Shown: in pieces, positions 9,139 to 63,938 of the stretch
How the letters are laid out: the number at the start of each line of letters is the position of its first letter
How positions within the stretch are numbered: the first letter of the stretch is position 1
Assembly: GCA_964428335.1 (NCBI GenBank)
Contig: CAYRXW010000005.1
Coordinates: 79,481 to 143,480 of the forward strand
Source of the DNA: an uncultured Methanosarcinales archaeon
GTDB lineage: Archaea; Nanobdellota; Nanobdellia; Woesearchaeales; GW2011-AR15
Length of the DNA stretch: 64,000 bases
Direction: 5' to 3'
Notes under the pieces: model-generated
The model's database searches: none
What the model saw: the letters and a program-made list of their open reading frames with translations, nothing else
What the model was told of the DNA's origin: nothing
Translations under genes and position numbers: made by a program

Positions 9139-9140
9139 CT

Positions 9141-38689: not shown

Positions 38690-38721
38690 ATTTATTTTTT
38701 ATAAATAAATCTGAATAAGTA

Positions 38722-39396: not shown

Positions 39397-39572
39397 AATT
39401 TAATTCATTCTTACCACTATAAATATATTCTGATTTTATAATCGACGTGAAATCACCTTTGCGCACCAAACCGTTTAATATGATAAAAGAATGCTCAATA
39501 GTGCTAAATTTAGCATTAAATCATAATAATTCAGGCAAAAAATATAAACAAATTTCATTATTTCATTCCAAT

Positions 39573-42443: not shown

Positions 42444-43621
42444 TTTTCATAGAATTCTTTTATTGTTTTTACGATATATTCTGCGTCTTCTTTTTTTACC
42501 CACCAGCAGCTTGGAATAGAGACATATTTTGATGTGAAATAATCAAGCCCTGGCCTAGGGATATCATCCTTGAACTCCTTAAAACAGCTGTAGACATCGT
42601 TCCTTGTGTGGACTATTGAATTATCAATGCCTTTCTTTTTTAGGTATTCAACAAATTCTTCCCTTCTGTCTGCAAGCAGTGTGTAAAGCCAATATGATGA
42701 CCTGGCACCCTGTTCCTGCCTTAGGACTTTTATCCCTTTTATTTTTGATAATTCTTTATTGTAGAACTCTCCGTTTCTCCTGCATATCTTGATGATTTTT
42801 TCTGTGCTCTTCAGATGCTCAAGCCCTATTGTTGCATCTATGTCATTCATATTGAATTTGTATCCCCATTCCTTGATGTCATAATACCATCTTAATTCCT
42901 CTTTTATCGCTGTTCTATCAAGGCCAAACCATCTTAATGCTCTTCCTCTCTTATGGTCTTCCTCGCTTTTACAGACAAGAGCTCCGCCGTCACCTGTAGT
43001 CAAGTGTTTTATTGCCTGGAATGAATACATCACAAAATCAGAATGGTTTCCTACTTTCTTCCCTTTATATTCTGAGCCAAATGCATGAGCTGCGTCTTCT
43101 ATGACTTTCAAATTATGATTTTTTGCAATCTCATTAATCCTATCTATGTTTCCAGGGTTTCCTGCCCAGTGCACGTATAAAATAGCTTTTGTCTTTTTTG
43201 TTATCAACCTTTCAATTGAATCTGGGTCTATGTTTCCTGTGTCTGCCAAAACATCTGACCACCTTATCCTTCCGCCCCTTGACATCACTGGCATGTTTGT
43301 TGCTACACAAGTCAATGGTGAAGATATCACTTCATCGCCTTCATTCACGCCAGCAAGCCTTAATGCAAGCTCTAATGCGTGAGTTCCTGCATCGATAGTA
43401 AGTATGTTTTTCACTCCTAAGAATTCTTTTAGCTTTTCTTCGAATGCTGCTACTTTAGGGCCCTGTGCAATGTATCCGGACATCAAGGTATCTCTTAATG
43501 GCTTCATGACTGATTTTGGCATGAATACCTTGAACAATGGGATTTTTCTTGCGCCTATTTCTACGTTTACTGAGTTTACAGGCTGGTTCACGAATTCAGA
43601 GGTCATCTTTTCCTGTGTCAT
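42440..43621 (-). CDS. DegT/DnrJ/EryC1/StrS family sugar aminotransferase (PLP-dependent)
   Basis: Fold type I aminotransferase layout; lysine-region and glycan-cluster context. 393 aa. Confidence 0.75.
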   Translation of the reverse strand: MTQEKMTSEFVNQPVNSVNVEIGARKIPLFKVFMPKSVMKPLRDTLMSGYIAQGPKVAAFEEKLKEFLGVKNILTIDAGTHALELALRLAGVNEGDEVISSPLTCVATNMPVMSRGGRIRWSDVLADTGNIDPDSIERLITKKTKAILYVHWAGNPGNIDRINEIAKNHNLKVIEDAAHAFGSEYKGKKVGNHSDFVMYSFQAIKHLTTGDGGALVCKSEEDHKRGRALRWFGLDRTAIKEELRWYYDIKEWGYKFNMNDIDATIGLEHLKSTEKIIKICRRNGEFYNKELSKIKGIKVLRQEQGARSSYWLYTLLADRREEFVEYLKKKGIDNSIVHTRNDVYSCFKEFKDDIPRPGLDYFTSKYVSIPSCWWVKKEDAEYIVKTIKEFYEK

Positions 43622-44658
43622 GAATAAAGCCTCGCATAGTATTCCTCTCCTGCTGCAATATCTGCTTTCTTCAGGAGTTCTTTTATCTCTTCAATGCCTG
43701 TTATTTCTGATTTTGAAGAATATTCTATCACTTTTGATATTTTTGGCTGCTCTGCCCTTAAATAATCCTTTGACTGGCTTAAATTTCTTGTCTTGTCTTT
43801 TTCTATGATGAAATATTCACCTTTATCTATGCATCTTCTTCCTTCTTCTTCTGAAATAAGGATTTCATGTATTTTTTCTCCGGGGTAAATTCCTATTACC
43901 TCATATGTGAAGTTTTTATCATTTCCGTGCTTTTCAATATATAGAAGCCTTGCCAAATCAACTATTTTTATTGAGGGGGCTTTTTTTACAAAGATTTCCC
44001 CTCCTTCCATATGTTCTGTTGCAAAAAATACCAAATCTATTGCATCATCTAAAGTAAGCAAGAATCTTGTCATATCCTCATGTGTAACTGTTAATTTCTT
44101 GTTGTTTTTAATCAGGTTCCTGAAGAAAGGTATCACTGAACCTCGGGAATTCATTACATTCCCATATCTTACGCATGCAAACAGAGTATTCTGGTTTTTT
44201 GGGGAATAGTTTGCTGAAATCATTAATTTTTCCTGCAAGGCTTTTGTCATTCCCATGACATTTACTGGCTGAACTGCCTTATCTGTTCCTACAGCAACAA
44301 CTTTTTTCACATTGTTTTTTATTGCTGCATCAATAAGATTTTTTGCTCCTAAAATATTTGTTTTTATTGCTTCTTCAGGGCATTCCTCGCAGCTAGGGAC
44401 TTGTTTTAATGCTGCTGCATGATAGACTATATCAACGCCATGCATTGCCTCATCAAGCCTATGCTTGTCCCTAACATCTCCTACAAAAAACCTGAGGTTA
44501 GAAAAATCAGAATATGCAAGCTTCATGTCATACTGCTTTTTTTCATCCCTTGAATATATTCTTATTTCCTTTGGATTGTGCTCCTTTAGCCTTTTTAGAA
44601 TCCTATTTCCAAATGATCCTGTTCCGCCTGTTATAAGGATAGTCTTTCCATTAAGCAT
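43618..44658 (-). CDS. UDP-GlcNAc 4,6-dehydratase (PseB/FlaA1/CapD-like, Polysacc_synt_2)
   Basis: ILITGGTGSFGN Rossmann motif. 346 aa. Confidence 0.7.
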   Translation of the reverse strand: MLNGKTILITGGTGSFGNRILKRLKEHNPKEIRIYSRDEKKQYDMKLAYSDFSNLRFFVGDVRDKHRLDEAMHGVDIVYHAAALKQVPSCEECPEEAIKTNILGAKNLIDAAIKNNVKKVVAVGTDKAVQPVNVMGMTKALQEKLMISANYSPKNQNTLFACVRYGNVMNSRGSVIPFFRNLIKNNKKLTVTHEDMTRFLLTLDDAIDLVFFATEHMEGGEIFVKKAPSIKIVDLARLLYIEKHGNDKNFTYEVIGIYPGEKIHEILISEEEGRRCIDKGEYFIIEKDKTRNLSQSKDYLRAEQPKISKVIEYSSKSEITGIEEIKELLKKADIAAGEEYYARLYS

Positions 44659-44722
44659 AATAAATGGGTTTGAATAGAAAAGCGTATATAAAGATTATGA
44701 TAGTGAAATCAAGAGTACAGAG

Positions 44723-45169
44723 TTATTCATCTGCTATTATGACTTCATCCATAGGAACATCCCATGGTTTTGGGGATAAATTAGTTATCTGGGATTTGAA
44801 GCATAGGCCTATTTTTTTTTCTTTTACATTTTTTAAGAACCTGTCAAAATAACCAAAGCCATGGCCTTTCCTATTTCCTGATAAATCAAAATTTACTCCT
44901 GGGATTATGAAAATTTCAATTTTTTCCTTTGGAAATTTTTCATTTTTTATTGGCTCAAGTATTTCGAATTTTCCTTTTTTTAAGTCACTAAAAGAGCTAA
45001 GTTTTATAGGGATTATTTCGTTTTTAGCTATTTTTGGAACAATAACTGTTTTTTCTTTTAGAAGTGTTTTTATGATTTCATGCGTATTTGGCTCATTTGG
45101 TTTTGAGACATAGATGAATATAACACTATGATTTTTACATTCATTTAGTATTTTTTTTATGTAATCCAT
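44723..45169 (-). CDS. 5-formyltetrahydrofolate cyclo-ligase (MTHFS)
   Basis: IPGVNFDLSGNRKGHGFGYFDRFL matches the family motif PGVAFDxxGxRLGxGxGYYDRxL. Confidence 0.75.
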   Translation of the reverse strand: MDYIKKILNECKNHSVIFIYVSKPNEPNTHEIIKTLLKEKTVIVPKIAKNEIIPIKLSSFSDLKKGKFEILEPIKNEKFPKEKIEIFIIPGVNFDLSGNRKGHGFGYFDRFLKNVKEKKIGLCFKSQITNLSPKPWDVPMDEVIIADE

Positions 45170-45225
45170 TTAGTTTAGTTATATTTCAGAATGTTTATAT
45201 ATGTTTTTCATCTGCTTTTATAATT

Positions 45226-46035
45226 ATGATACTTGATGGTAAAAAAGTAAGTGAAGAAATAGGCAAAAGAATCAGAATAAAAGGAAATATCAAACTTTCT
45301 GTAATACTTGTTGGAAATAACGAATCATCAAGGATTTATGTAAATATGAAAAAGAAAAAATGTGAAGAATTTGGGATTTCCTGTGAGATACATGAATTTT
45401 CAGATAGTTCTGCTGAAAAAGATATAATAAGTAAAATTGAGAGCCTTAATAAGGATAAAACAGTAAATGGCATTTTAGTTCAGCTACCTTTGCCTATGCA
45501 TTTTGATACTAGAAAAATACTGGATAGAGTAAATGAGAATAAGGACGTTGATGGTCTTAGCTCAATAAATATGACAAAGATAATTTTAGGGGAAAAAGGA
45601 ATTGAACCTTGCACACCTAAAGGGATTTTTTCACTTCTTGAATATTATGACATTGATTTAAATGGAAAGGATGTCTGTGTCATTGGGTTTAGTAATACTG
45701 TAGGAAAGCCACTTGCAACCATGTGCATAAATAAGGGAGCTACTGTAACTGTTTGCCATATCAAAACAAAAGATTTGAAAAATCACACTTTAAAAGCAGA
45801 TATAATCATGACTGCTACAGGTGTTCCGAAATTAATTAAGGAAGATATGGTTAAACATGGAGCAGTTTTAGTTGATATTGGAATTTCAAAAGTTAATGGG
45901 AAAGTTATTGGCGATGCTGATTTTGATAATTTAAAAAATAAATGCTCTTTTATTACGCCTGTCCCTGGGGGAGTTGGGCCAATGACGATTATTTCTTTGA
46001 TTGAGAACTTGGCTAATCTAGAAAAAGCTGGTTAG
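45226..46035 (+). CDS. folD: bifunctional methylene-THF dehydrogenase/methenyl-THF cyclohydrolase FolD
   Basis: N-terminal MILDGKKVSEEI, 269 aa, FolD-like domain order. Confidence 0.8.
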   Translation: MILDGKKVSEEIGKRIRIKGNIKLSVILVGNNESSRIYVNMKKKKCEEFGISCEIHEFSDSSAEKDIISKIESLNKDKTVNGILVQLPLPMHFDTRKILDRVNENKDVDGLSSINMTKIILGEKGIEPCTPKGIFSLLEYYDIDLNGKDVCVIGFSNTVGKPLATMCINKGATVTVCHIKTKDLKNHTLKADIIMTATGVPKLIKEDMVKHGAVLVDIGISKVNGKVIGDADFDNLKNKCSFITPVPGGVGPMTIISLIENLANLEKAG

Positions 46036-47083: not shown

Positions 47084-47992
47084 ATGAAGGTTTTAGTTAC
47101 TGGTGGAGCCGGTTTTATTGGAAGCAATATTGCAGTTGAACTTGAAAAAGAAGGTTTTGATGTTGTAATTTTAGATAACCTTTACTCTGGAAACTTAGAA
47201 AATTTAAAGGGATTTAAAGGAAAATTTATCGAACTTGATGTCTGTGATAAAAAAATGCTAAGCTTAAATACTAAATTTGACATATTGTTTCATGAAGCTT
47301 CAATTACTGACCCTAGGCATAATGATGATAAGGAAACTTATTCAAAAAATGTAGAAGGATTTAAAAATATATTAAAGCTTGCAAAAAAAGACAATGCAAA
47401 GCTTATCTATGCTTCTACTGCTAACCTCTATGGAAACGGTAAATTACCAATGGAGGAAGACCAGGAAAAAGAAATTATTTCAGTATATGGAAAATCAAAA
47501 CTTGAGATGGATAAAATTGCAGAAAACTTGTTTGATAAAATGCATATTATTGGTCTTAGGTATTTCAATGTATTTGGACCTAGAGAGAAATTTAAAGGCA
47601 GGCCAGCATCCATGATATATCATCTATGGAAACAGATTAAGGAAGGGAAAAACCCAAGACTTTTCAAATATGGTGAACAAGTTAGAGATCACATTTATGT
47701 AAAAGATGTAGTATCTGCAAATCTTCTTGCAATTAATGGAAAATCTGGAATTTATAATGTAGGAACAGGAATTGGTACAAGCTTTAATGAAGTTGTAACA
47801 ACAATTAATGAATTATTAGGTATGACAAATTCAACTGAATACTTTGATAATCCATATGACCTAAAAACATATCAAGCCAATACACTGGCAGACACAAAAA
47901 GAGCTGAGAAATTTTTGAAATTCAAGGCAAAGTATAAATTTAAAGAGGGTGTTATTGATTATTTAGAGTACCTTAATGAGGAAGAAAATTGA
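47084..47992 (+). CDS. ADP-L-glycero-D-manno-heptose 6-epimerase (HldD/RfaD-like) NAD-dependent epimerase
   Basis: MKVLVTGGAGFIGSNI...ILDNL matches the HldD N-terminus. Start chosen at the internal ATG (the ORF track begins at 47066). Confidence 0.65.
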   Translation: MKVLVTGGAGFIGSNIAVELEKEGFDVVILDNLYSGNLENLKGFKGKFIELDVCDKKMLSLNTKFDILFHEASITDPRHNDDKETYSKNVEGFKNILKLAKKDNAKLIYASTANLYGNGKLPMEEDQEKEIISVYGKSKLEMDKIAENLFDKMHIIGLRYFNVFGPREKFKGRPASMIYHLWKQIKEGKNPRLFKYGEQVRDHIYVKDVVSANLLAINGKSGIYNVGTGIGTSFNEVVTTINELLGMTNSTEYFDNPYDLKTYQANTLADTKRAEKFLKFKAKYKFKEGVIDYLEYLNEEEN

Positions 47993-49047
47993 AAGTTTTA
48001 ATCCTTAACCTTATACCAAATACAATAGGAGACACATTATTCCTCACTCCGCTTATTAATGTCTTAAAATCAAATGGACATGATGTGCATATAACTGTCT
48101 CTCCTTTGAATAAAATGCTCCTTGAGAACAACAAAGATATTTCTAAACTATATGTCATTCATGAACTTGAAGAACTTTCAAAAGAAATAGGAAAACTAAG
48201 AAAAGGTTTTGCATATTTCACTATGATTATTAAAATTGTTAATAGTTGCATTAAAGAAAAATATGATGCATGCCTTGTTGCTCAACCAAATTTTTTTGTA
48301 AGTCAAGCAATTCCTTTTCTTATAGGTGCAAAAAGAAAAATCGGATATCTATACAAAGGAGCAAAGCTATCATTCCTACTAACTGATAAAGTATACTTTG
48401 AAGAGGATGAAATTAAAAAGAGCAGAAGACATTATGTTGATTCTGTTCTTGATCTTGCTAGACCTCTTGGAATTAAACCAAAGAAAAAAGACAGAGTTGT
48501 AACACTCTCAGTTGATCATGAAACTGAAAAAAATATTTTATCTAAGTTCAATTATCTAACGAGGAAATATGTGTGCTTCCAGCCAGGTGCAAAATGGTTA
48601 AGAAAGCAGTGGCCAAAAGAACATTTTAAAAGACTTGGGGAAAAATTGATTGAGAAAAATTTTAAGATTATAATTTTAGGATCTAAAAACGAACATATGC
48701 TTGGTGAACACATTAAAAATAATAATGTAAATATTATAAATCTTTGCGGAAAGATAAATCTTTTAGAGGTTATTTGTATTATGAAGAATTCAAAAATTAA
48801 TATCTGTAATGATTCTGGGCTTGCACACATATCTTCTGCTATCAGCACTAAAACTGCTGTGATTTATGGAATTGCCCACCCTAGACACAGTGAACCACTT
48901 GGATCTGGAAAAGTAATTAAAATAATGAATATAAAAAAAATACCTCTTAGGATTTTGAGAGAAGATGAGACTGAAATAGGTATAAATTTAATGAAAAATA
49001 TTTCTGTTGAGAAAGTTTTCAATAAGATAAAATATGAAATGTTATAA
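47989..49047 (+). CDS. glycosyltransferase family 9 (heptosyltransferase)
   Basis: N-terminal MKVLILNLIPNTIGDTLFLTPLINVLK matches the GT9 hallmark. 352 aa. Confidence 0.7.
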   Translation: MKVLILNLIPNTIGDTLFLTPLINVLKSNGHDVHITVSPLNKMLLENNKDISKLYVIHELEELSKEIGKLRKGFAYFTMIIKIVNSCIKEKYDACLVAQPNFFVSQAIPFLIGAKRKIGYLYKGAKLSFLLTDKVYFEEDEIKKSRRHYVDSVLDLARPLGIKPKKKDRVVTLSVDHETEKNILSKFNYLTRKYVCFQPGAKWLRKQWPKEHFKRLGEKLIEKNFKIIILGSKNEHMLGEHIKNNNVNIINLCGKINLLEVICIMKNSKINICNDSGLAHISSAISTKTAVIYGIAHPRHSEPLGSGKVIKIMNIKKIPLRILREDETEIGINLMKNISVEKVFNKIKYEML

Positions 49048-49113: not shown

Positions 49114-50850
49114 TCAATGAAGTGTTGTAGCCTGTGGAATCAGCTCTGATGCATCTGCTACCTGATAAACTACATATTCATATAGATGATGTCTTGCTGC
49201 CTCACTTAGTGTATCCATGGTAAATCCTTTTTTATCTGACTTATCTATGAACCGTTGCGCAAATTCTACTGAATTAGGTACAACTAGAAAATAAGGTGCA
49301 AGCTGCCTAATTATAGAACTTTTTTCTTGACTGAGCTGAAAATTTTTTATAAATTCTTCTTCTGCTTCTCTAGAGATACTGGTCCATGTCCTAATCATAT
49401 CTCCTAACTTTTCAAAAGAGTAGTTCCCTTGAGTTATATAATTTTGAGCAAATTCATGTCCTTCATCCAAATATGCAAAAATATTGAAATGCCTGCGAAG
49501 CTCTGCATTCTGTTTTCTGTAGGTTTCAAGTTCTTCATCAGTAAGCCATATTCCTGCATCACTTGATTTTTTTATTAAGCTTGGCCCGACATGCTTTTTT
49601 AGAAATCTAAGAACACTTTTTTCAAAAAATGTGTCTTTAATATCCCAATTTTCCCCTTGTGGGTTCTCATAGAACCCTAAATCAACAGAGTATTTTCCAA
49701 GTCTTGTACGTGCATATGGAACAAAGGTAGATGCCCATGCTAAATGCGGACCTCCTGTCTTTTCCCTAAGACTAACGTTTAATTCGAGAATTTCTAAGTC
49801 TGCTGAAAGATTCATCCTTGTTGGTACTGAAGTAGCGCCATAAGGAAGTCCTGTTATCTGCTCTGTACGTATCTTAAATCCACAGTCTACACAATTTTTC
49901 ATCCCTTCAAATATCATCTCCTGTGGCATTTGCCTATCTAATACTTCCTTTCTAATATGTTCATCTGCTGCCTCTATTGCCATCGTTAAGCCACAACAGC
50001 CAGAATCCTTGCAAAGCCTCAGCCTTTTTTTCCCGACTTCTTCAACTGTCATTTCCCATCTCATCTGGGCGTGCCAGCGTATCCCTACTTCCTTTGGCCA
50101 TCTTTTTGCAAATTCTTCAAGCCACTCTATCTTCATACCAAAAACATCATCCTGAAAATAAATCATTTTTGTTGGATATTTTTCTTTCAATTCTTTTCCT
50201 TCCTTAATAACTGCATCTACTGTTCTTGTATTCCATGGAAAAAGCCTCCCTGCGAGCCTTTTATTGCCTATCTCTTCAACTATTTCATTTGATAAACCAG
50301 GAATAACACTTTTTATGTCTGAACTGTTATAACAATATGTGCATCTAAATGGACATCCTGTCATAGTTATTATACTTTTAATTGTACTCCTTCCGTGCTT
50401 TGGATAATCTTCGTAAAATTTAATTCTGTCCGGATGTGGAAAGACATAGTTGCTTTTTTTTGGAGTCTGAACACCTAGTTTTGCTGTACCACTAAGAATT
50501 TCATATAGCGCTGCAAATCCCTCGCTCATAACAACGTAATCGGCTTTTTGAGAAGCTTCAAAAGGAAAGTAACTTGGATGTGGCCCTCCTAGAATTGTTT
50601 TTATATTTGAAAATTCCTTCTTCAATTTTGAAAAGTAATCATATAATGTAATATGATTCCCTGTGTATACATTAAAAGCAATAAAATCTGGTTTTTCTTT
50701 TATAACTTTATAATGGAACTCTGTGAAATCCTGATCTTTAACTAGGCAATAACTGCGCTCAAATCCCATATCCCTTGCTAGGCCTCCTAGATGCAAAAGA
50801 CCAAGCGGTTCAATAACTGAGTAAGCTGCACCAAAAAGTATTTTTCCCAT
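49114..50850 (-). CDS. B12-binding domain radical SAM enzyme
   Basis: CPFRCTYC (CxxxCxxC) plus an N-terminal cobalamin-binding-like region. 578 aa. Confidence 0.8.
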   Translation of the reverse strand: MGKILFGAAYSVIEPLGLLHLGGLARDMGFERSYCLVKDQDFTEFHYKVIKEKPDFIAFNVYTGNHITLYDYFSKLKKEFSNIKTILGGPHPSYFPFEASQKADYVVMSEGFAALYEILSGTAKLGVQTPKKSNYVFPHPDRIKFYEDYPKHGRSTIKSIITMTGCPFRCTYCYNSSDIKSVIPGLSNEIVEEIGNKRLAGRLFPWNTRTVDAVIKEGKELKEKYPTKMIYFQDDVFGMKIEWLEEFAKRWPKEVGIRWHAQMRWEMTVEEVGKKRLRLCKDSGCCGLTMAIEAADEHIRKEVLDRQMPQEMIFEGMKNCVDCGFKIRTEQITGLPYGATSVPTRMNLSADLEILELNVSLREKTGGPHLAWASTFVPYARTRLGKYSVDLGFYENPQGENWDIKDTFFEKSVLRFLKKHVGPSLIKKSSDAGIWLTDEELETYRKQNAELRRHFNIFAYLDEGHEFAQNYITQGNYSFEKLGDMIRTWTSISREAEEEFIKNFQLSQEKSSIIRQLAPYFLVVPNSVEFAQRFIDKSDKKGFTMDTLSEAARHHLYEYVVYQVADASELIPQATTLH

Positions 50851-50937: not shown

Positions 50938-52155
50938 ATGAAAGTTCTATATATCTCTAGAAGATTCTATCCTGAAGTTATTGGAGGTGGGCAAGTCTCT
51001 GGGCTTTTCATAGCAAAATCTCTTAAGGCGCAGGGATGTGAGGTTTATGTATGCACATTCACAGAAGGAAAATATAGAGAGCTAGATATAGATGGAGTAA
51101 AGATATTTCAAATTCCTATCAAAAAACTTAATTTTTCTCCAAGGCTTTCAAACATGGACTTTATGTATTTTGAAATGGCTATTCATGCTTCTAAAATAAT
51201 TGATAAAGTTAGGCCGGATGTGATTCATCTCCTTAATTTTGAATCAATTCCTGGTGCTGCGATATATTATAAGTTAAAATATAAAATACCGATTTATGCT
51301 ACTGTCAATGGACCTGGTTTTGGCTGCTTTGTACAATCTGCAATCGATTATAAAGAAGATATTTGCATTAAATGCAGGGTTTTTAAGAGATATTTTTGTT
51401 CAAAAAAGTATTGGGGACTAAAAGGGAACCTTTATTATATCTATAGCTTGTGGTACATGGGTCTTTTGAGGTTATCATATAACTATGTTGACAAGTTCTT
51501 TGCGGTGAGCCATGCTATGGTGCCTGTGCTCACAAATATTGGCGTAAAGGAAAAAAATATCTCAATCATATATAATCCTATTGAGCCTATGAAAATCCGC
51601 AGCACCGGGCTTAAAAAGAAGCTAGGGATAGAAAACAAAAAGATCATTCTGTTTATAGGAAGGCTTACTAAAGCAAAAGGCGTTGAGAATGTAATAAAAT
51701 CCATGGTAGGCATAGATAATGCTATTTACCTTGTTGTTGGAAAAAAGACAAATGATTATAATGAGTTCCAACGCCTTGTAGATAATCTAGGATTAAATGA
51801 TAAAGTCCTATTCACAGATTACGTCGACCATAAAGAGATAGTGGAATATTATTCTATAGCTGATGTTTGTGTCCTTGTCGAAAGATTCTATGAGCCTTTA
51901 TCAAGATTCCTTCTTGAAGCTACCGTCTATGGTGTTCCTATAATCACAAATGACGTTGGCTCGAATAAGGAAGTTGCTTATTTCAATAAAAAAATAAACC
52001 ATATTGTAAAATATGGCAACATAGAAGAACTTAGGACAACTATCTTGAAAGTGCTTAAGTCAAATAAAAAAGGAGTTGCACCAAATTTCCTTTCGCCTGA
52101 AATTATTGGGAAAAAAATATACGCAGAGTATAATTCATCTAAATTTATTTACTAG
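50938..52155 (+). CDS. glycosyltransferase family 4
   Basis: MKVLYISRRFYPEVIGGGQV N-terminal domain. C-terminal EX7E-like region. Confidence 0.75.
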   Translation: MKVLYISRRFYPEVIGGGQVSGLFIAKSLKAQGCEVYVCTFTEGKYRELDIDGVKIFQIPIKKLNFSPRLSNMDFMYFEMAIHASKIIDKVRPDVIHLLNFESIPGAAIYYKLKYKIPIYATVNGPGFGCFVQSAIDYKEDICIKCRVFKRYFCSKKYWGLKGNLYYIYSLWYMGLLRLSYNYVDKFFAVSHAMVPVLTNIGVKEKNISIIYNPIEPMKIRSTGLKKKLGIENKKIILFIGRLTKAKGVENVIKSMVGIDNAIYLVVGKKTNDYNEFQRLVDNLGLNDKVLFTDYVDHKEIVEYYSIADVCVLVERFYEPLSRFLLEATVYGVPIITNDVGSNKEVAYFNKKINHIVKYGNIEELRTTILKVLKSNKKGVAPNFLSPEIIGKKIYAEYNSSKFIY

Positions 52156-53595
52156 GCCTTGAATCTCATCAATGGTAATAAGGTTTAGAATAAATACAAA
52201 GCAGGTGAATAGTACTAATCCTAAGAAAAACGCAAAAATATTATTCAAATAAATTTTTGTTATTGCTGATAACGACAATATAACTAATCCTAGCCCTATG
52301 GCTTTTACAACATTTATTAACCCATCCTGCAAAAGTTCTTGCATAAATAGCTGGTAAGAAGTCATTAGTGTAGAAAATACTGAGCTTATAAGATATGCTG
52401 CTGCTGCTCCAATTAAGCCGTATAACTTTATCAAAATTAAACTGGCAACAAAATTTACTGTCATAAATCCTATTGAAGCAACCAAAGCCTCGTTCTTCTT
52501 TTTATGTCCAAGCAGGATGCTGGAATTAAGCTCATAAACGCTGATGAAGAAATATGAAAAGACAAATAAGCTTAAGCTTCTGCTTGCCAATGCATACTTG
52601 CTGGTAAATAGGAATTCTATTAAGTACCCAGAAAAATGTATGAAGAAAAGGCCTACAGGAACAAACGCAATTATCAGATATTTATATATGGTAGGAATAA
52701 GGTTCTTTGATTTTTTATCATCTCTTGCATTTATTTCAGAAGAAATAGGCAGGAGAACAATAGAGATAGGTTTGAACAAAAATTTTATGATATTTGCTGT
52801 TGGCATTGCAATGTTTAAGTAAGCAACATTCTCTAAATTTGAAACCCAAATCATGATAATGCTTGATAATGAATGTGAAAGGTTCTTAAAAGAGGAAGAA
52901 AGGAACTGGAAAAGGCTGAAAGAAAACAGCTCTTTTATCTGCTCTTTATCAATACTGAACCTATGCTTAAATATTCCCGGAACCAAATCAAGGAAGAACC
53001 ATATTTCTGAAACTGTCGTAAGGAAAAAGGCTGTGAAATAGGCTAATGCTATATTTGTTACGGTAACCCCAAAGAAAGTTGTAGCATAGCAGCTTAACAT
53101 TAGTATGAGCGAGGCTGTAAACTGGAATATGGAAAACAAGTATATTTTCTTGAACCCAAGGTATGTTGCATTGAACATTGAATCAAAGATTGAGAATGAG
53201 TAGCTCAAAAGCAATATGGTAAATAATGTAAATGATCTTTTATCGCTGATGAGACTTGCTAACAGCTGCTTTGCAAAAATAAGGCATACTAATATTATAA
53301 GAGCATATAAGACAATCTGGAAAAAGAAAAGAAATTTTATTGCATTGTTTATCTTACCTTTTTCATTTTTCACATTATATTCCGGCAGGTATCTAACAAC
53401 TGTCGAAGCAAGTCCAAAATCCTTGAATGGAATTATTGTTGATATTATGCTAAATACCCCAAAAAACAATCCATAGTCATAAACTGTCAGAGATTTTGCC
53501 AGAAAGACCCTAAGAAGATAGCCTGAAAGTGCAGTAAGGACTGAGGATATAAAAAGTATAAGTGTCTCCCTAAAGATGAATTTCTTATAACTCAT
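52135..53595 (-). CDS. oligosaccharide flippase (Wzx/MOP superfamily) membrane protein
   Basis: About 12-14 TM helices. 486 aa. Glycan-cluster context. Confidence 0.65.
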   Translation of the reverse strand: MSYKKFIFRETLILFISSVLTALSGYLLRVFLAKSLTVYDYGLFFGVFSIISTIIPFKDFGLASTVVRYLPEYNVKNEKGKINNAIKFLFFFQIVLYALIILVCLIFAKQLLASLISDKRSFTLFTILLLSYSFSIFDSMFNATYLGFKKIYLFSIFQFTASLILMLSCYATTFFGVTVTNIALAYFTAFFLTTVSEIWFFLDLVPGIFKHRFSIDKEQIKELFSFSLFQFLSSSFKNLSHSLSSIIMIWVSNLENVAYLNIAMPTANIIKFLFKPISIVLLPISSEINARDDKKSKNLIPTIYKYLIIAFVPVGLFFIHFSGYLIEFLFTSKYALASRSLSLFVFSYFFISVYELNSSILLGHKKKNEALVASIGFMTVNFVASLILIKLYGLIGAAAAYLISSVFSTLMTSYQLFMQELLQDGLINVVKAIGLGLVILSLSAITKIYLNNIFAFFLGLVLFTCFVFILNLITIDEIQGLVNKFR

Positions 53596-53647: not shown

Positions 53648-54250
53648 ATGAACAGAGATGACTTTATAATAAAAAGAGTTAAATTTCTCCTTGAAAAGGA
53701 AAAAAAAGGAACACTTTTAGATATTGGACCTGGGAAAGGAAGGCTTACTGATGAATTAAATAACCTAGGATTTAAGATAGAATTATGTGATTATGATATA
53801 AATATTATTAAAAAGCTGTCAAGATATAAAGGAAAAACATGTGACTTGAATAAGGAAAAACTCCCTTATTCTGATAATTCTTTTGATTTTATAAACTGCA
53901 CAGAAGTATTAGAACATATTGAAAATCCTTGGCATGTTGTTAGGGAGATTGGAAGAGTCTTAAAAAAAAAGGGGATAGTTATATTTTCAACACCGCATGT
54001 AGATTCAATAATTCAAAAAGCAAAGTACTTGTTTACGGATAACTTATTTAGCTTCCCAAAGTCCCCTATTTTAGGAGGGCATATAACACCGGTACATGAT
54101 TTTGTTTTGGAAAATATTCTTAGAAGAAATGGTTTTGAAGTAACTACTAAAACATATAACCTTGGCTGGATACCACTTATAAGACTTAAACTGAAACCTT
54201 CAAAAACTTTTGGAGATACTTTAATTATCAAAGCAAGGAAAATAAATTAA
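53648..54250 (+). CDS. class I SAM-dependent methyltransferase
   Basis: LLDIGPGKGRL motif I. Confidence 0.7.
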   Translation: MNRDDFIIKRVKFLLEKEKKGTLLDIGPGKGRLTDELNNLGFKIELCDYDINIIKKLSRYKGKTCDLNKEKLPYSDNSFDFINCTEVLEHIENPWHVVREIGRVLKKKGIVIFSTPHVDSIIQKAKYLFTDNLFSFPKSPILGGHITPVHDFVLENILRRNGFEVTTKTYNLGWIPLIRLKLKPSKTFGDTLIIKARKIN

Positions 54251-55044
54251 CTGAATGAAAAAAACCTGTCTAATTTTTTTTCCTTTAGCCAAGTATTATA
54301 TCTTTCATAATCTTTAACTGAATCGAATTCCAGCCATCCCTTTTCTATTTTTATTGGCATTACATCATATCCTTCATTTATTATAGATTGTAACATGCAG
54401 GTCATATATGCTTTTTTAAATGATTTTGACCTTAGCCAGGGTGTTTCCTTATCAAAATAAAGCTGTTTATTTTTTTTGTAAACTTTTTTTAGTATCTCAC
54501 ACCCTTTTCCTGAAAACTTTAGAATTCCGACATATCTATATTTGGCTTTTTCGATATTGCAGCCTGTTTCACCCAGTTCAATAATTTTCCCATTCTTTAT
54601 AACCATGCTTTCAGTGTCTTCATTTAAGTTATCATGTCTTTCCTTCCAATATTCTAGATAGCCTGAATCCACAGTAACACCTATCTCATATTTTGATTCA
54701 ATGACTTTTTTTATAAGTCCTAATTCATAAATGATGTCTGAATATAGAATAAGTGTATCACTATCCAATTCCTTTTCTGCTGCAAATAAGGTATCAACCA
54801 TATTTGTTACATCATAATCTTCATTAACGTAATATTTTACATTTGGAACTGCTATTTTTTCCGGCTTATATCCTTTGATAATTACAATATCAGAAATACC
54901 TGTTTTTTTTAATGTCTCGACCTGCCATTCAATTAAAGGTTTCCCATTAAAATTAAGCATGCATTTTGGAATTTCTTTTGTATAATTTCCTAACCTTGTT
55001 CCAAGGCCTGCTGCTAGAATTATTGCTTTCATTCTCAATTCCAT
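54247..55044 (-). CDS. sugar-phosphate/LicC-type nucleotidyltransferase (candidate CTP:phosphoglutamine cytidylyltransferase, Cj1416-like)
   Basis: MKAIILAAGLGTRLG NTP-transferase motif. 265 aa. Confidence 0.6.
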   Translation of the reverse strand: MELRMKAIILAAGLGTRLGNYTKEIPKCMLNFNGKPLIEWQVETLKKTGISDIVIIKGYKPEKIAVPNVKYYVNEDYDVTNMVDTLFAAEKELDSDTLILYSDIIYELGLIKKVIESKYEIGVTVDSGYLEYWKERHDNLNEDTESMVIKNGKIIELGETGCNIEKAKYRYVGILKFSGKGCEILKKVYKKNKQLYFDKETPWLRSKSFKKAYMTCMLQSIINEGYDVMPIKIEKGWLEFDSVKDYERYNTWLKEKKLDRFFSFS

Positions 55045-55682
55045 TTCCTAAATAAAAAATCTGAAACTAATTTATTATTAATATTATCATCTGGACTTTT
55101 TCTTTCAGGATGCCATTCTATGCCTGCAATTGGCAGAACCTTGTGCCTTATGCCTTCAATTATCTTTCCGGATTTAGCAAATGAGACTAACTCCTTTGAA
55201 AGTGATTTCTCTGTTATGCATCTTAAATGGTACGAATTAACTTTTGTTTTCCCATAGCCTTCAATTATAACATCATGGTTTTTTCCTGGCTGATGTGAAT
55301 CAGAGATTTTTTTTGTATCTTCAAGTTTTCCATTGAAATATACATTAATAAACTGCATTCCCCTGCATATACCAAAAACCGGGATTTTATTTTTAATTGC
55401 GAAATCAAGAAGCCTTGATTCGGTTGCGTCCCTTTCCTTACTTGATGAGTCACTTTTATCTTTGCTTCCATAAATTCCCGGAGTTATGTCGTTTCCTCCA
55501 GTAAGTATTATTCTCTCAACATTTAATTTTAAAAAATAATTAGTTAAATTATTTGGATTATTAGGAATAGGTATCAATGCAAAGCCAAAACTGCTAAAAT
55601 ATTCAATATAGGTTTTTTCCAGACTATCTATATCTACACCATATTTGTTTTTATCCCTTCTTTGTGAAATTAGTGCTATCAT
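55035..55682 (-). CDS. class I glutamine amidotransferase-like (peptidase C26) hydrolase (candidate gamma-glutamyl-CDP-amidate hydrolase, Cj1417-like)
   Basis: Catalytic Cys in PVFGICRGMQ. His/Glu in GIEWHPE. Confidence 0.65.
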   Translation of the reverse strand: MIALISQRRDKNKYGVDIDSLEKTYIEYFSSFGFALIPIPNNPNNLTNYFLKLNVERIILTGGNDITPGIYGSKDKSDSSSKERDATESRLLDFAIKNKIPVFGICRGMQFINVYFNGKLEDTKKISDSHQPGKNHDVIIEGYGKTKVNSYHLRCITEKSLSKELVSFAKSGKIIEGIRHKVLPIAGIEWHPERKSPDDNINNKLVSDFLFRKWN

Positions 55683-58636
55683 TTTATTATTCTTCCATAT
55701 TCACAGTCCAAGGTTATAAAATCATTTTCATTCAAATGGTCAAAAAAGTAGCCTGCTCCAATAGCTGCAGGTATTCCAAATTCTGCACTCCTAATCGACA
55801 TATGCGAAGCAACACCACCATATTTTGTAACTAACCCTTTTATTTTTCTTGTGAATATCCAGTCATATCCTGGGTCTCCGCTCTCAATTAACACAATTTT
55901 ATCATCAATTTCAGGAATGACTTCCTTATCATTTAATTTTATTACTAATCCCTGAACCTTCTTATTAGTTATGTAATTTGGCCTTGGCTTATAAGGTGTA
56001 ATAATCTCAAAATCCTGCTCCCTTGTTATTATCGGAGGAAGAACTAAAAGAGAACTTTCAAGCCGTTTTTGGGAATTTTTTTCAATTCTTTCTTTCCAAA
56101 TCTGTAAAAGCTCTTCTTTTTGCTTTTCAATGAAAATATCCTTAAGTTCAAGGAGAGAAAGCTCTTTTCTTGTAAATCCCATATTTTCCCCCACATTTGC
56201 TATTATTTCCAAAGCATCGCTAAGGTTCTTTGTAAACTCAAACTTTGAAAACTCTCTTGCTTCAATAGCTTTTCTTGAGAACTCAAACAAATCATAGGCG
56301 CTAAATTCCAATCCCTCTTGTAATAATGCGTCTGTTATTTTTTTAGCTGTTTTTTCACTTAGCCTAAAACTATATTTTTTATCTGATACTGACGAGAAAT
56401 TCATTGATTTTAATAGGTCTGGGTTAGAGTCATACCTAAGGCTTGTAATATCATAGGTTCCTGGCCTCAAATGGCAATATTTTTTTATGAACTCGTCTTT
56501 TGATACTTCTCCGCTGCAGAATTTCTTGAAATCAACATTTATTTCTGTTGCTACTGTACTTATGGAATTCATGAAATCATGATATTCCTGCTTTGTAAGT
56601 ATATTTTTTATAACCATGCTTTTTAGCATTATTTTTCCTATGAATGCCAGCCTTGCTAACCTTGAAAACTGCACAGTTCCAAGCTTTCGCGCGTCATCCA
56701 AGAGGAATTTTGCTTTTTTTAAGTGCTGGGAAAATGATGTTTCCAGGGGCAGGTTTTCTACTATTCTTTTTCTATTTTTATCAAGTGTTTCCAGGTCATT
56801 AAGATCATTTTTTATTGTTTTTTTTGAATTTGTTATAAGATTATTAGTTAATTCAATCAATGAAGTCTTAATTGCTTGAATTTCTAAGCTGCTGAATCCC
56901 TCATTTATTAATTCGTCTTTTCTGTTATCAAAATTCATATCATAACATGTAAAAAGTATTTCAAATTCAACTTTGTCCTGCATATCGTGATTTTTATCAA
57001 GTTTTTTTAAGTAAAATGAAACTAATTTGTCTCTTAATTTTCTTGGCACTTTTGCAGGAATAAATGAGTTAAATGTGTTTCTAACATCCACATAAGGCTT
57101 GCTTCCAAACAAAATAACCAATTTTGCCGGACTTACATTATTATATCCCTGGCTTGTTCTTGCCTCATGCCATGCGCTGCCTGTTATAAGGTAATCGTAC
57201 AATGAATAATCCAATATATTTGGCTTGTCACCTATTATCTCTGCAGGATTCCAGTCTGGCATATCTGCAAAGATATTTGCTTTGCCAGATAAATGCTCTT
57301 TTTCTATGCTAAGCTTTTTATGCTCCTGTTTTATGCTTTTTACAAGATTAAAGAATGTCTTGTCGTTTGTATCTGATTTTAGGCTTAATGTAAGAGGCCT
57401 TACCTGAAAGATTATGACTTCATTATTGGAATTTATCCCAAATTCTATGTCCAAACCTATACCTGGAACTATTTTTTCTATTTCATATACTGATTCCATT
57501 AGATTTCTTAGTTTCTCGTTTGGATTTGCTGTTCTTAGAATATAGGTTGTCTTTGTTTCTATTCCATGTGTTACCGTATCTGTTGCTCCTGTTTTATCAT
57601 CATAGTTAATTACATAATATGGCGCATTTCTAAGCGTTCTTGTAAATACTACCCCGCTCATCACAATATTTTTACTATAGTTTTGCACAAGAACCTGATT
57701 TGATGAACTAATCGAATTTTTTTTCTTATATGAACTAAATACTCTATTTACTGCACTTGTTATATTTTCTTTATTTGGCTTAATATTTAAAACACTTTCA
57801 AAATGCCCTGCTTTTGAATCCTCAATTGAATCTTCTGAAATTGCTGAACTTCTGACTACCAATTCCTGAGTTTGAAATTTTTTTTGGATATCTTCAATAA
57901 CCTTATCTTTATTATTTGCCCAGTCTATTGATGTCAATATAAATATATCTTCAATTTTTGATTTGGTTAGAATCGGCTTTAATGCCATAAGGGTGTTTGC
58001 TTTTGTTGATATTATTTTCCTATTTAAAACTCTTAATACTTTCCCTCTATTTTTTATTATATCTGAAAAATCTATTATATCCTTAAAATTGTTCCTGTTT
58101 TCAATTAATTTATCAATAATTTTAAAGCCAGAAAGCCTGCTATAATAAGGGTGCCTAATTACTTTTCCGCCTATTTCACTTAAATATTTTTCAGCCGGTA
58201 TTTCTTTCCAGTCAGATCCATAAATCAAGTGAATTTCTGCATCTTTATACTCCGCATGAATTTTCTTTAAATTTGATGTCGGATCTATATTTGTCTGGAT
58301 TAATACCCTATCAACCGGCCTTAGCTCAGAAATTACTGCTTTTCTTTCTTTTAGATTTGCTATAGGCCTAACTCTTATTTCTTCAGCTGCTTCATCTGTT
58401 AAAACTCCGCAGACAAGGTAATCTGAAATTGATTTTGCAAAATTTATGGCATGAAGATGACCATAATGAAATAAATCCCCAACAATTGGAAGATATGCTA
58501 TTCTTTTAAGGCTTGTTTTTTTTATTTCTACTATATCCCCCTCTTTAATTTCAGAAGAAGAAGGGATTGTAACGCAAAGTTGATTATTGCTCTTATTTTT
58601 CCAAACTATTTTTTTCATAAATTCAACTAGTAACAC
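55679..58636 (-). CDS. fusion protein: N-terminal HxGH cytidylyltransferase-like domain + PEP-utilising-enzyme (PPDK/PEP synthase-like) kinase with a C-terminal phosphohistidine domain (candidate L-glutamine kinase, Cj1418-like)
   Basis: N-terminal IVGDLFHYGHLHAI (HxGH). C-terminal YGGVASHMSIRSAEFGIPAAIG matches the phosphohistidine swivel-domain motif. 985 aa. Confidence 0.6.
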   Translation of the reverse strand: MLLVEFMKKIVWKNKSNNQLCVTIPSSSEIKEGDIVEIKKTSLKRIAYLPIVGDLFHYGHLHAINFAKSISDYLVCGVLTDEAAEEIRVRPIANLKERKAVISELRPVDRVLIQTNIDPTSNLKKIHAEYKDAEIHLIYGSDWKEIPAEKYLSEIGGKVIRHPYYSRLSGFKIIDKLIENRNNFKDIIDFSDIIKNRGKVLRVLNRKIISTKANTLMALKPILTKSKIEDIFILTSIDWANNKDKVIEDIQKKFQTQELVVRSSAISEDSIEDSKAGHFESVLNIKPNKENITSAVNRVFSSYKKKNSISSSNQVLVQNYSKNIVMSGVVFTRTLRNAPYYVINYDDKTGATDTVTHGIETKTTYILRTANPNEKLRNLMESVYEIEKIVPGIGLDIEFGINSNNEVIIFQVRPLTLSLKSDTNDKTFFNLVKSIKQEHKKLSIEKEHLSGKANIFADMPDWNPAEIIGDKPNILDYSLYDYLITGSAWHEARTSQGYNNVSPAKLVILFGSKPYVDVRNTFNSFIPAKVPRKLRDKLVSFYLKKLDKNHDMQDKVEFEILFTCYDMNFDNRKDELINEGFSSLEIQAIKTSLIELTNNLITNSKKTIKNDLNDLETLDKNRKRIVENLPLETSFSQHLKKAKFLLDDARKLGTVQFSRLARLAFIGKIMLKSMVIKNILTKQEYHDFMNSISTVATEINVDFKKFCSGEVSKDEFIKKYCHLRPGTYDITSLRYDSNPDLLKSMNFSSVSDKKYSFRLSEKTAKKITDALLQEGLEFSAYDLFEFSRKAIEAREFSKFEFTKNLSDALEIIANVGENMGFTRKELSLLELKDIFIEKQKEELLQIWKERIEKNSQKRLESSLLVLPPIITREQDFEIITPYKPRPNYITNKKVQGLVIKLNDKEVIPEIDDKIVLIESGDPGYDWIFTRKIKGLVTKYGGVASHMSIRSAEFGIPAAIGAGYFFDHLNENDFITLDCEYGRIIK

Positions 58637-58706
58637 TAGTAGTTTATAAAAGTTATGAAATTTAAAACTTTTTAAAGAGGAGAAAATTTAATTAGAATGC
58701 TTTTCC

Positions 58707-59363
58707 TTGCAAACATATTTAAACATTCCTTGGTTTTTAATCATTATGGAATATCCATATGTTTCTCCTAATTACCTTAAAAACCCACCTACCTACCAGT
58801 TCTCAAAATTTGGCGGAAATGATTTCCTTAAAGAATACAAAAAAAGCAGGAAATACGCTATAGACAAGTTAAGCAAGCTAGTAAAAAAACCATATTTGGA
58901 TTTTGATGATTATCTAAGCAAACTAAACGGCATTAAGTTTGATTATTCAATAACCCTTAGGAATAGCAGTGAGTCAACAAAAGAAATTATGCAAGCTATT
59001 TTATTAATGCAAAGATATGGAAATGATAGGAAAAAAGCTTATGAGTTATTGAGCAAATTTATAAAAAAATTTGAGGTTTTCAAAAAGATATATACAAGAT
59101 ATAATCTAAACGACATGAAAAAAGATAGTGAAGACTTTTCAAATATTTCAAACTATGTGCTTCTTTCCCTTAATCTTATTTTATATTATAAAAAAGAGAA
59201 TAACCTAAAATTCTTAAATGCCTGCTTAAAACTTAATGATCTTTCAATTTCTTCTTTTGATAATTTAATTGAAGAAGATGAAAAAAAAGAGATGCTTCTT
59301 TCTATCAATGAAGAAGTGAAAATTATCCAGCATCTTTTTACAAAAAATGGTGTTTTAATATGA
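58707..59363 (+). CDS. hypothetical protein
   Basis: ORF only. Overlaps the next gene by 4 nt. Confidence 0.35.
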   Translation: MQTYLNIPWFLIIMEYPYVSPNYLKNPPTYQFSKFGGNDFLKEYKKSRKYAIDKLSKLVKKPYLDFDDYLSKLNGIKFDYSITLRNSSESTKEIMQAILLMQRYGNDRKKAYELLSKFIKKFEVFKKIYTRYNLNDMKKDSEDFSNISNYVLLSLNLILYYKKENNLKFLNACLKLNDLSISSFDNLIEEDEKKEMLLSINEEVKIIQHLFTKNGVLI

Positions 59364-63098: not shown

Positions 63099-63938
63099 TT
63101 ACAGATAAACCCAGGCCTTCATGTAAAGCAGGATTGCTTCTGTATAATCTCCTTTACTAAATTTCCTATTCGCTAACTTGTATAGATCTTCAGCAAACTT
63201 ATATTTCAGTTTTCCTGCCCTTCTTAATTCGCTGTAATCTGTCTGCTCAAATTTCTCTTCAAGTATCATTTTATCTGCTTTTGCAAGAAGATAGGATATC
63301 TCATCATTCAATTTCCTTGATGCTGCAGCCTCATCAACGAAAACCATTATGGATCTTATTTCAAAGTCATTAATCCAGTACCTTTCGTCAAGGCTTGCTT
63401 CAACCTTTCTTCTTGCATATTCCATGTGATACTTTTTTGGCTTGTCCTCTATCAAGGAAAGCGCTTTTTCCTTGTAGTATCTTGGACTGTCACATGCGTC
63501 CCCTAGTCCGTCATTGTTTGTGTCAGCTTGATTTGAATTTGCAATAGAGATGCAGTTGTCATCAAAATTATTTACTGTGTCATTATCTGTATCTGGTAAT
63601 GTGTAATTTCCGTACACCAGATATTCATCAGGAATAAGTTCTGATTCATATTCTCCGTCTCCTTCATAATCAAGATACAATATGAAATCTGAGCCAATTG
63701 TTGCATCCATCCTGCCTTTGCTGTTTTCTCCTATTGAAATGTTCCTGAACTTCAGCATTATGCCTGAATCTGTCTCATTATCATATACGTACATATGAAG
63801 CGTAAACTGGCCTTCTCCTGTCGCCTCTAATAGCAGAGTATGGTTGCCTTTCCCAAGTACTGTCAGAGCTTCTGGCTCATTTTCTGGACCTGTATAAAAG
63901 TCATATTCCACTTCAGTTCCATCTTTCAAAACAGTCAT
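63099..63938 (-). CDS. hypothetical protein with thrombospondin-type-3-like Ca-binding Asp repeats; possibly N-terminally truncated by the window edge
   Basis: DTDNDTVNNFDDNC and DTNNDGLGDACD repeats. The reading frame remains open toward position 64000. Confidence 0.4.
   Translation of the reverse strand: MTVLKDGTEVEYDFYTGPENEPEALTVLGKGNHTLLLEATGEGQFTLHMYVYDNETDSGIMLKFRNISIGENSKGRMDATIGSDFILYLDYEGDGEYESELIPDEYLVYGNYTLPDTDNDTVNNFDDNCISIANSNQADTNNDGLGDACDSPRYYKEKALSLIEDKPKKYHMEYARRKVEASLDERYWINDFEIRSIMVFVDEAAASRKLNDEISYLLAKADKMILEEKFEQTDYSELRRAGKLKYKFAEDLYKLANRKFSKGDYTEAILLYMKAWVYL

Follow-up and report, generated by a model that had tools for sequence, protein, structure and literature searches.

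In Campylobacter, the enzymes Cj1415-Cj1418 convert glutamine, ATP, and CTP into CDP-phosphoramidate 3'-phosphate (PMC11800397). Among them, Cj1418 is a glutamine kinase (PMC10971088; PMC6429109), and no enzyme before it was known to phosphorylate an amide nitrogen (PMC10971088). A 2019 review states that phosphorus-nitrogen (P-N) bonds in glycans had been chemically shown only in this genus (PMC6429109). A gene cluster of Borgs, the extrachromosomal elements of Methanoperedens, has since been predicted to make O-methyl phosphoramidate (MeOPN), and the preprint in question is the only place in the searchable literature where "glutamine kinase" occurs outside Campylobacter (bioRxiv 10.1101/2024.11.05.622173). 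Here, we analyzed an operon of three genes, encoding a large two-part kinase, a hydrolase, and a nucleotidyltransferase, that lies in a 64-kb stretch (hereafter the window) of the archaeal contig CAYRXW010000005.1. We conclude that this operon probably makes a nucleotide-linked phosphoramidate from glutamine for the decoration of a surface glycan, with the chemical steps assigned by homology.

A sequence-only reading of this DNA, which had likened the operon to the Campylobacter MeOPN precursor pathway, described three minus-strand genes overlapping by 10 and 4 nt. We checked the four open reading frames (ORFs) on which it was built, that is, the operon and an adjoining methyltransferase gene, and found that all their coordinates match (Table 1), as do the two overlaps, which involve the kinase and hydrolase genes (4 nt, 55679-55682) and the hydrolase and nucleotidyltransferase genes (10 nt, 55035-55044). 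The motifs that it quoted (GGVASHMSIRSAEFGIP, GICRGMQ, and WHPE) are all found in the translations, and its assignment of the three proteins to phosphoenolpyruvate (PEP)-utilizing, C26, and LicC-type families is borne out by Pfam (PPDK_N and PEP-utilizers; Peptidase_C26/GATase; NTP_transf_3/NTP_transferase). In the public gene call, the large protein is identical but counts 979 aa, which fits an ATG start codon at 58618.

The bulk of the large protein fits a single family. Residues 206-983 match NCBIfam family NF004508, the model of which is named "hypothetical protein," with 839 bits (cut-off 501) over positions 8-785 of a 789-position profile, and this is the only family that the kinase part fits above a curated cut-off. 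The best PEP synthase model reaches 67.7 bits (cut-offs of at least 598), the rifampin phosphotransferase model 35.8 bits (cut-off 999), and the pyruvate phosphate dikinase (PPDK) model 15.9 bits (cut-off 456). The window kinase shares with these three enzymes an ATP-grasp and swivelling-histidine architecture but differs from them in its central domain, and its scores, far under every curated cut-off, remove the concern voiced in the sequence-only reading itself that the protein might be closer to a PEP synthase or a rifampin phosphotransferase. Named close homologues (50-56% identity) all come from Woesearchaeota or Nanoarchaeota metagenome-assembled genomes, and homologues so labeled display the same two-part architecture; several at 51-57% identity carry the IMG label "glutamine kinase." The taxonomy of the named homologues makes a DPANN archaeon the likely source of the window. 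Full-length identity to homologues encoded on bacterial plasmids is 33-36%. When the kinase part is aligned with four bacterial members (alignment A1), ~140 positions are invariant, including the predicted phospho-carrier histidine, His945, which lies in the motif GGVASHMSIR of the PEP-utilizers domain (aa 912-981) and is equivalent to H793 of the protein from Deltaproteobacteria bacterium Smac51. Bacterial members from complete clusters score 839-932 bits against NF004508, the same pattern as the window kinase.

As for the two smaller proteins of the operon, they show the features expected of partners of such a kinase. The 215-aa hydrolase matches Peptidase_C26 (100.7 bits), and its best NCBIfam family is NF045546, gamma-glutamyl-CDP-amidate hydrolase, with 91.9 bits, the next family scoring 42.7 bits. 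Its Cys106, His191, and Glu193 residues are conserved in 79 module-linked homologues, and the protein is a candidate gamma-glutamyl-CDP-amidate hydrolase of the Cj1417 type. The best solved structure for the 265-aa nucleotidyltransferase is LicC (1jyk), and, among the positions conserved in at least 90% of 82 homologues encoded beside such kinases, it matches 38 of 39. We regard it as a candidate CTP:phosphoglutamine cytidylyltransferase of the Cj1416 type, an activity for which there is no curated model among the NCBIfam matches listed for the window proteins.

The three genes travel together across bacteria and archaea. A scan using one genome per species found relatives of the kinase in at least 565 genomes, spread over Desulfovibrionaceae, Pseudomonas, Alteromonas, Aeromonas, Acidobacteriota, Solirubrobacterales, Cyanobacteria, Bacteroidota, candidate phyla radiation (CPR) bacteria, and Woesearchaeota. 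The best 80 genome loci were kept for comparison, within a set of 87 nonredundant loci overall. The trio is complete in 80 of these 87 loci, with the order kinase-hydrolase-nucleotidyltransferase in 75. Of the 80 genome loci, 74 encode a hydrolase along with the kinase, 74 a nucleotidyltransferase, and 55 have a gene resembling adenosine 5'-phosphosulfate (APS) kinase, the type of Cj1415. Full-length homologues were also found by tblastn on plasmids of Vibrio, Azospirillum, Roseovarius, Cupriavidus, Agrobacterium, and others; in every case, genes for a C26 hydrolase and a LicC-type enzyme come next. On the Smac51 plasmid, genes for the kinase, hydrolase, nucleotidyltransferase, a methyltransferase, and a small APS-kinase-like protein amount to the full Cj1415-Cj1420 enzyme set, and the proteins show the same NCBIfam pattern as those of the window (839 bits against NF004508, 75 bits against NF045546). 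This is the gene order of complete clusters, the methyltransferase gene lying between those for the nucleotidyltransferase and the APS-kinase-like protein. Fusion proteins join these functions physically: APS-kinase-like, cytidylyltransferase, and kinase domains (P0107, P0118), APS-kinase-like and kinase domains (L089, L090), or a LicC-like domain and the kinase (L087 and many others). Campylobacter itself is absent from the best 80 of the at least 565 genome matches and from the 17 plasmid records matched by the kinase. Fusion proteins and, in GC-rich genomes, shadow ORFs blurred the unbiased clustering of the neighborhood ORFs, which was used only qualitatively.

Family scores, gene context, and fusion proteins therefore agree in supporting the proposal that the trio is of the Cj1418/Cj1417/Cj1416 type. 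In the mechanism that we favor, the large protein, through its 780 C-terminal residues, would act as an L-glutamine kinase, in which ATP charges His945 and the phosphoryl group then passes to the amide nitrogen of glutamine. A cytidylyltransferase would join CMP, from CTP, to this phospho-glutamine to yield CDP-glutamine, from which the C26 hydrolase, using its Cys106/His191/Glu193 residues, would remove glutamate to leave cytidine diphosphoramidate. The stand-alone LicC-type enzyme would be the conserved counterpart of the Campylobacter cytidylyltransferase.

The large protein also contains an N-terminal cytidylyltransferase domain, which is absent from the sequence-only reading. This domain matches PF01467 (CTP_transf_like) with 43.3 bits against a gathering score of 21, and its best NCBIfam match is TIGR02199 (rfaE_dom_II), with 49.8 bits, under the cut-off. 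Among solved structures, the domain comes closest to the cytidylyltransferase domain of Fom1 (5x3d), which acts on a phosphonate, and then to ethanolamine-phosphate cytidylyltransferase (ECT) and TagD. All of them share with the fused domain the HxGH nucleotidyltransferase fold, over an alignment of ~130 residues, but they differ by a TagD-type C-terminal motif, RTxGISTT, which in the window family is replaced by a conserved PYYxRLSxFKI. Across 110 homologues of the fused domain, the HYGH form of the first motif is invariant, which, together with the family-specific second motif, suggests that the domain is catalytically active and has a specificity of its own. Fusion of a TagD-like domain to the kinase was seen only in archaeal sequences. 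The N-terminal extension of kinases is TagD-like in archaeal loci and LicC-like in many bacteria, two unrelated folds in the same position. The closest relatives of the fused domain (~50-53% identity) are found at the N terminus of a different dikinase, in proteins of 1128-1208 aa (P0256, P0258, P0260, and P0263), in which the order is permuted, the PEP-utilizers domain preceding a C-terminal PPDK_N; other relatives are part of fusions with GT2 (glycosyltransferase family 2) and LicD. These arrangements fit a general role in which domains of this type may make CDP-linked phospho-donors from the product of the attached or neighboring enzyme. In the window protein, the fused domain would most likely be a second nucleotidyltransferase that either captures the labile product of the kinase or makes a second CDP-linked donor.

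Two further proteins are recurrent partners of the module, an all-helical protein and a formyltransferase-fold protein, homologues of which occur in 27 and 38 of the 80 genome loci, respectively. Their genes are divergently transcribed from the window operon. In two DPANN loci (L006 and L007), they belong to the same operon, downstream of the nucleotidyltransferase gene, and in Pseudomonas, Alteromonas, Aeromonas, Cohnella, and one Nomurabacteria genome the order is APS-kinase-like, helical, formyltransferase-fold, kinase, hydrolase, and nucleotidyltransferase. The two partners are fused together in five loci, and P0126, P0130, and P0132 join the formyltransferase-fold protein to an APS-kinase-like domain inside a complete operon. 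The AlphaFold model of the 232-aa protein (predicted local distance difference test score, pLDDT, of 93) best matches the formyltransferase domain of ArnA, Fmt, and sugar N-formyltransferases. Its H117, H119, and D154 residues are invariant; the catalytic His and Asp positions are kept, and an invariant His takes the place of the usual Asn. The model of the helical protein has a pLDDT of 65, and a fold search returned generic helical-repeat matches, supporting no functional inference. Since ArnA-type formyltransferases act on nucleotide-linked amines, and since the partner is fused to a nucleotide-acting kinase in some organisms, it is an attractive possibility that the pair tailors a nucleotide-linked P-NH2 group. 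The helical and formyltransferase-fold proteins would probably modify the P-N group or pass it on.

Several observations weigh against a Campylobacter-like phosphoramidate operon. The hydrolase score against NF045546 is under the equivalog cut-off of 250 bits; homologues from complete bacterial clusters also score just 75-107 bits. The link between NF004508 and Cj1418 is suggested by IMG naming and gene context, and P-N decoration of a glycan is a prediction from gene content. Two nucleotidyltransferases are present where one would be enough. No APS-kinase-like gene was found in any frame of the window, in which a search with two APS-kinase-like domains (phmmer --max) gave nothing better than E = 0.015; the lack of a Cj1415-type gene, pointed out previously for the operon, thus extends to the whole 64 kb. 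No recognizable phosphoramidate transferase is present in the window, where no search with Cj1421/Cj1422 sequences or profiles was made. Finally, the 200-aa methyltransferase encoded next to the operon (Methyltransf_23, 86.5 bits) is unrelated to the family of methyltransferases found in Cj-like clusters, and the module-linked, Smac51-type methyltransferase has no match in the window even at E = 0.1. The small S-adenosylmethionine (SAM) methyltransferase to which the sequence-only reading drew attention is indeed adjacent, but its gene is convergent with the operon, on the opposite strand, sharing 4 nt with the end of the nucleotidyltransferase gene, and therefore lies outside the operon transcript. 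The "methyl" part of an O-methyl phosphoramidate is consequently unsupported, since this enzyme falls outside the module-linked family.

The compared loci show two patterns. First, the module methyltransferase family and the formyltransferase-fold partner are never found together (0 loci with both, 22 with the first only, 34 with the second only, and 31 with neither; Fisher p = 2e-6, not corrected for phylogeny and with some contigs truncated, hence an indication but no proof). The window falls on the formyltransferase-fold side of this split. Second, an APS-kinase-like gene lies near kinases that have an N-terminal nucleotidyltransferase-type extension in 6 of 26 loci, versus 51 of 61 for kinases without one (Fisher p = 1e-7, an indication subject to the same absence of phylogenetic correction and the same truncated contigs). 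With no 3'-kinase in 64 kb and a formyltransferase-fold protein paired with a helical one, the decoration need not be O-methyl phosphoramidate, and is probably a phosphoramidate-type group in a broader sense. A more specific version, which we put forward tentatively and consider doubtful, is a kinase-independent branch in which the fused second nucleotidyltransferase replaces the logic of Cj1415, and the folate-type formyltransferase and its helical partner tailor P-NH2 in place of O-methylation. If true, this would be a P-N decoration of glycans that is chemically undescribed so far and widespread in bacteria and archaea, N-formyl phosphoramidate being one possible product.

That the genome nevertheless encodes the full Campylobacter-type MeOPN pathway is unlikely in our opinion. 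The 3'-kinase and the transferases would be found elsewhere in the genome, the small methyltransferase would perform the O-methylation, and the fused domain and formyltransferase would serve other sugars. There is room for such genes because the window represents 64 kb of a ~171-kb contig, and other DPANN loci do carry an APS-kinase-like enzyme, either fused, as in P0107 and P0118, or separate and accompanied by a Cj-type methyltransferase (L064). The methyltransferase gene abuts the operon, and related methyltransferases are found within ~5 kb of the module in two other loci (L001 and L006). This explanation is at odds, however, with the absence of an APS-kinase-like gene within 64 kb, with the rarity of such genes near kinases that have an N-terminal extension, with the formyltransferase-fold partner that the module methyltransferase never accompanies, and with the placement of the window methyltransferase outside the module-linked family.

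Another explanation, to which we give quite a low probability, is that the substrate is different. The dikinase would phosphorylate a compound other than glutamine, the two nucleotidyltransferases would provide CDP-alcohol or CMP-phosphonate donors, the decoration being teichoic-acid-like or a phosphonate, and the C26 protein would be a generic gamma-glutamyl hydrolase or amidotransferase. In keeping with this, the fused domain is closest to the Fom1 cytidylyltransferase and next to enzymes forming CDP-alcohols, its close relatives include GT2-LicD fusions and the N-terminal part of a different dikinase, and the stand-alone enzyme best matches LicC, a phosphocholine cytidylyltransferase. CDP-alcohol phosphatidyltransferases adjoin the module in L001 and L004, and a B12/radical-SAM enzyme is encoded close by in the window. 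Against it, the kinase is a full-length, above-cut-off member of one family that is found with the C26 and LicC-type enzymes in 80 of 87 loci, a joint occurrence that gamma-glutamyl logic fits best, and the nearest family of the hydrolase is a CDP-amidate hydrolase. Moreover, the annotated part of the window (~30-64 kb plus ten ORFs) has no PEP mutase and no genes for choline or glycerol-phosphate supply. Lastly, that these are housekeeping genes adjacent by chance (a PEP synthase- or rifampin-phosphotransferase-like enzyme, a glutamine amidotransferase, and a sugar-1-phosphate nucleotidyltransferase), as might be thought from generic Pfam domains (PPDK_N, PEP-utilizers, GATase, NTP_transferase) common to such enzymes, is effectively refuted by the family scores reported above and by conserved synteny, the genes being overlapping, kept in order across phyla, and located in a glycan cluster.

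The phosphoramidate operon that we favor lies, as had been noticed, inside a large glycan cluster next to a flippase (Polysacc_synt), and L006 and L007 likewise have a flippase beside the module. The surrounding 30 kb consist of glycan genes, the cluster extending from ~30 to 64 kb of the window and including several GT4 enzymes, a UDP-glucose dehydrogenase, a carbamoyltransferase, and a B12/radical-SAM enzyme. The latter, a B12-binding protein encoded two genes away from the operon (49114-50850, minus strand), shows weak similarity to P-methyltransferases of the PhpK type, and similar enzymes adjoin the module in L006. The region 41799-46035 encodes a second formyltransferase together with a DegT aminotransferase, a PseB-like dehydratase, a 5-formyl-tetrahydrofolate cyclo-ligase, and FolD. 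It looks like an N-formyl amino-sugar branch carrying its own folate-cofactor genes, which could also feed the formyltransferase-fold partner encoded at 59360. Genes for heptose nucleotides are found at 36700-41138 and 47989-49047, partly as unusual fusions (PfkB kinase with SIS isomerase, and HAD phosphatase with GT1), along with a GT9 heptosyltransferase and a stand-alone RfaE-II-like cytidylyl/adenylyltransferase, a paralogue of the kinase-fused domain. Between the operon and the divergent partner genes is an AT-rich region that we presume to be a two-way promoter.

Table 1. Features of the operon and its surroundings, in window coordinates except for the last row
Feature	Coordinates	Strand	Evidence and remarks
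Large protein, 985 aa: cytidylyltransferase-like domain + L-glutamine-kinase-like dikinase	55679..58636	-	GTG start; CTP_transf_like, PPDK_N, PEP-utilizers (Pfam)
Cytidylyltransferase-like domain, aa ~40-180, TagD/RfaE-II/Fom1-CyTase type	58097..58519	-	PF01467, HYGH motif
Glutamine-kinase-like part, aa 206-983	55688..58021	-	NF004508; ATP-grasp region, central domain, C-terminal swivelling phosphohistidine domain
Codon of His945, predicted phospho-carrier histidine in GGVASHMSIR	55802..55804	-	Invariant in alignment A1
Class-I glutamine-amidotransferase-fold C26 hydrolase, 215 aa	55035..55682	-	Peptidase_C26/GATase (Pfam)
LicC-type nucleotidyltransferase, 265 aa	54247..55044	-	NTP_transf_3/NTP_transferase (Pfam)
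Class-I SAM methyltransferase, 200 aa	53648..54250	+	Methyltransf_23/11 (Pfam); pathway link positional only
Wzx-type (MOP) flippase	52135..53595	-	Polysacc_synt (Pfam); context
AT-rich divergent intergenic region, operon versus partner genes	58619..58745	.	Sequence read directly
All-helical partner protein, 218 aa	58707..59363	+	Likely start 58746; conserved module partner
Formyltransferase-fold partner, 232 aa	59360..60058	+	Formyl_trans_N (Pfam); conserved module partner
Sulfate-activation/sulfatase neighbors of the module in other loci	L006 13798-15512; L007 16055-18119; L008 5443-7848; L014 7211-9882; L066 1082-3268; L088 1780-4065		

Other genes of the window and of the compared loci deserve mention. 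Upstream of the glycan cluster are genes for a HerA-like helicase (28585-30552, minus strand) and a D-Ala-D-Ala-ligase-like ATP-grasp enzyme (22463-23461, minus strand), and a complete type I restriction-modification system occupies 3758-10703 on the minus strand, with HsdR (1036 aa), a 365-aa ORF, HsdS, and HsdM. A 279-aa ORF at 63099-63938 (minus strand), with no Pfam family, has Asp-rich repeats like the calcium-binding repeats of thrombospondin type 3. Scans of the 64 kb for tRNA genes and Rfam families gave zero matches, and a scan of viral contigs found no relatives. At several archaeal and bacterial loci, the module is adjoined by sulfate-activation genes (ATP sulfurylase with a HIT protein, or CysD/CysN; Table 1), and soluble sulfatase-family proteins of the alkaline-phosphatase superfamily are encoded beside it in five (L001, L006, L007, L054, and L093). 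Sulfatase-family proteins, ATP sulfurylase/CysDN, CDP-alcohol phosphatidyltransferases, and TagF-like proteins were looked for in the window, and none was found. We had entertained the idea that TagF-like (Glyphos_transf) neighbors of bacterial modules are MeOPN transferases but dropped it because, in C. jejuni NCTC12662, the gene annotated as a glycerophosphotransferase is distinct from the MeOPN transferase gene (PMC8949473). Some archaeal loci without an APS-kinase-like gene encode, after the nucleotidyltransferase, a 449-aa protein (L004, 12487-13836; L085, 13800-15161) that combines a P-loop with a C-terminal part resembling dTMP kinase and might be an alternative kinase.

With the core module present in the genomes of at least 565 species, surface decoration of the phosphoramidate type may well be far commoner than the chemistry literature suggests. 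The view that phosphoramidate is predicted here for an organism where it was unreported has to be qualified, because a Borg cluster for MeOPN had been predicted earlier, the kinase family is widespread, and IMG already labels DPANN homologues. The module appears to exist in at least two mutually exclusive tailoring versions, with a methyltransferase or a formyltransferase-fold partner, and its two modes of activation, a separate kinase or a fused second nucleotidyltransferase, tend to be alternatives. DPANN archaea live attached to host cells, and MeOPN is a phage receptor in Campylobacter. A P-N group, charged or neutral, on a DPANN envelope glycan could thus matter for host recognition and virus adsorption, and the variant enzymes are open to direct in vitro testing.

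Among known systems, the MeOPN pathway of C. jejuni, with its L-glutamine kinase (Cj1418), CTP:phosphoglutamine cytidylyltransferase (Cj1416), gamma-glutamyl-CDP-amidate hydrolase (Cj1417), and CDP-amidate 3'-kinase (Cj1415), resembles the window operon in having the same three enzyme types in one operon within a surface-glycan cluster. The likeness extends to the C-terminal phosphohistidine domain of the kinase, the Cys-His-Glu triad of the hydrolase, and the LicC fold of the nucleotidyltransferase. The window differs in its archaeal host, its TagD-like domain fused to the kinase, and its helical and formyltransferase-fold partners; it is without a Cj1415-type kinase (in 64 kb) and a module-type methyltransferase, and its hydrolase is under the equivalog score. 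The Borg cluster has in common with it an archaeal setting and a single cluster, in a glycan-rich region, that combines a glutamine-kinase-like enzyme, a C26-like enzyme, and two nucleotidyltransferase functions. As far as the two can be compared by description, the second nucleotidyltransferase of the Borg cluster is LicC-like and fused to a PEP mutase, while that of the window is TagD-like and fused to the kinase. The clusters of Pseudomonas, Alteromonas, Aeromonas, Methylotenera, Cohnella, and Nomurabacteria share with the window both the trio and the helical and formyltransferase-fold partners, but they usually have an APS-kinase-like gene and no TagD-like fusion, many of them having a LicC-like N-terminal extension instead.

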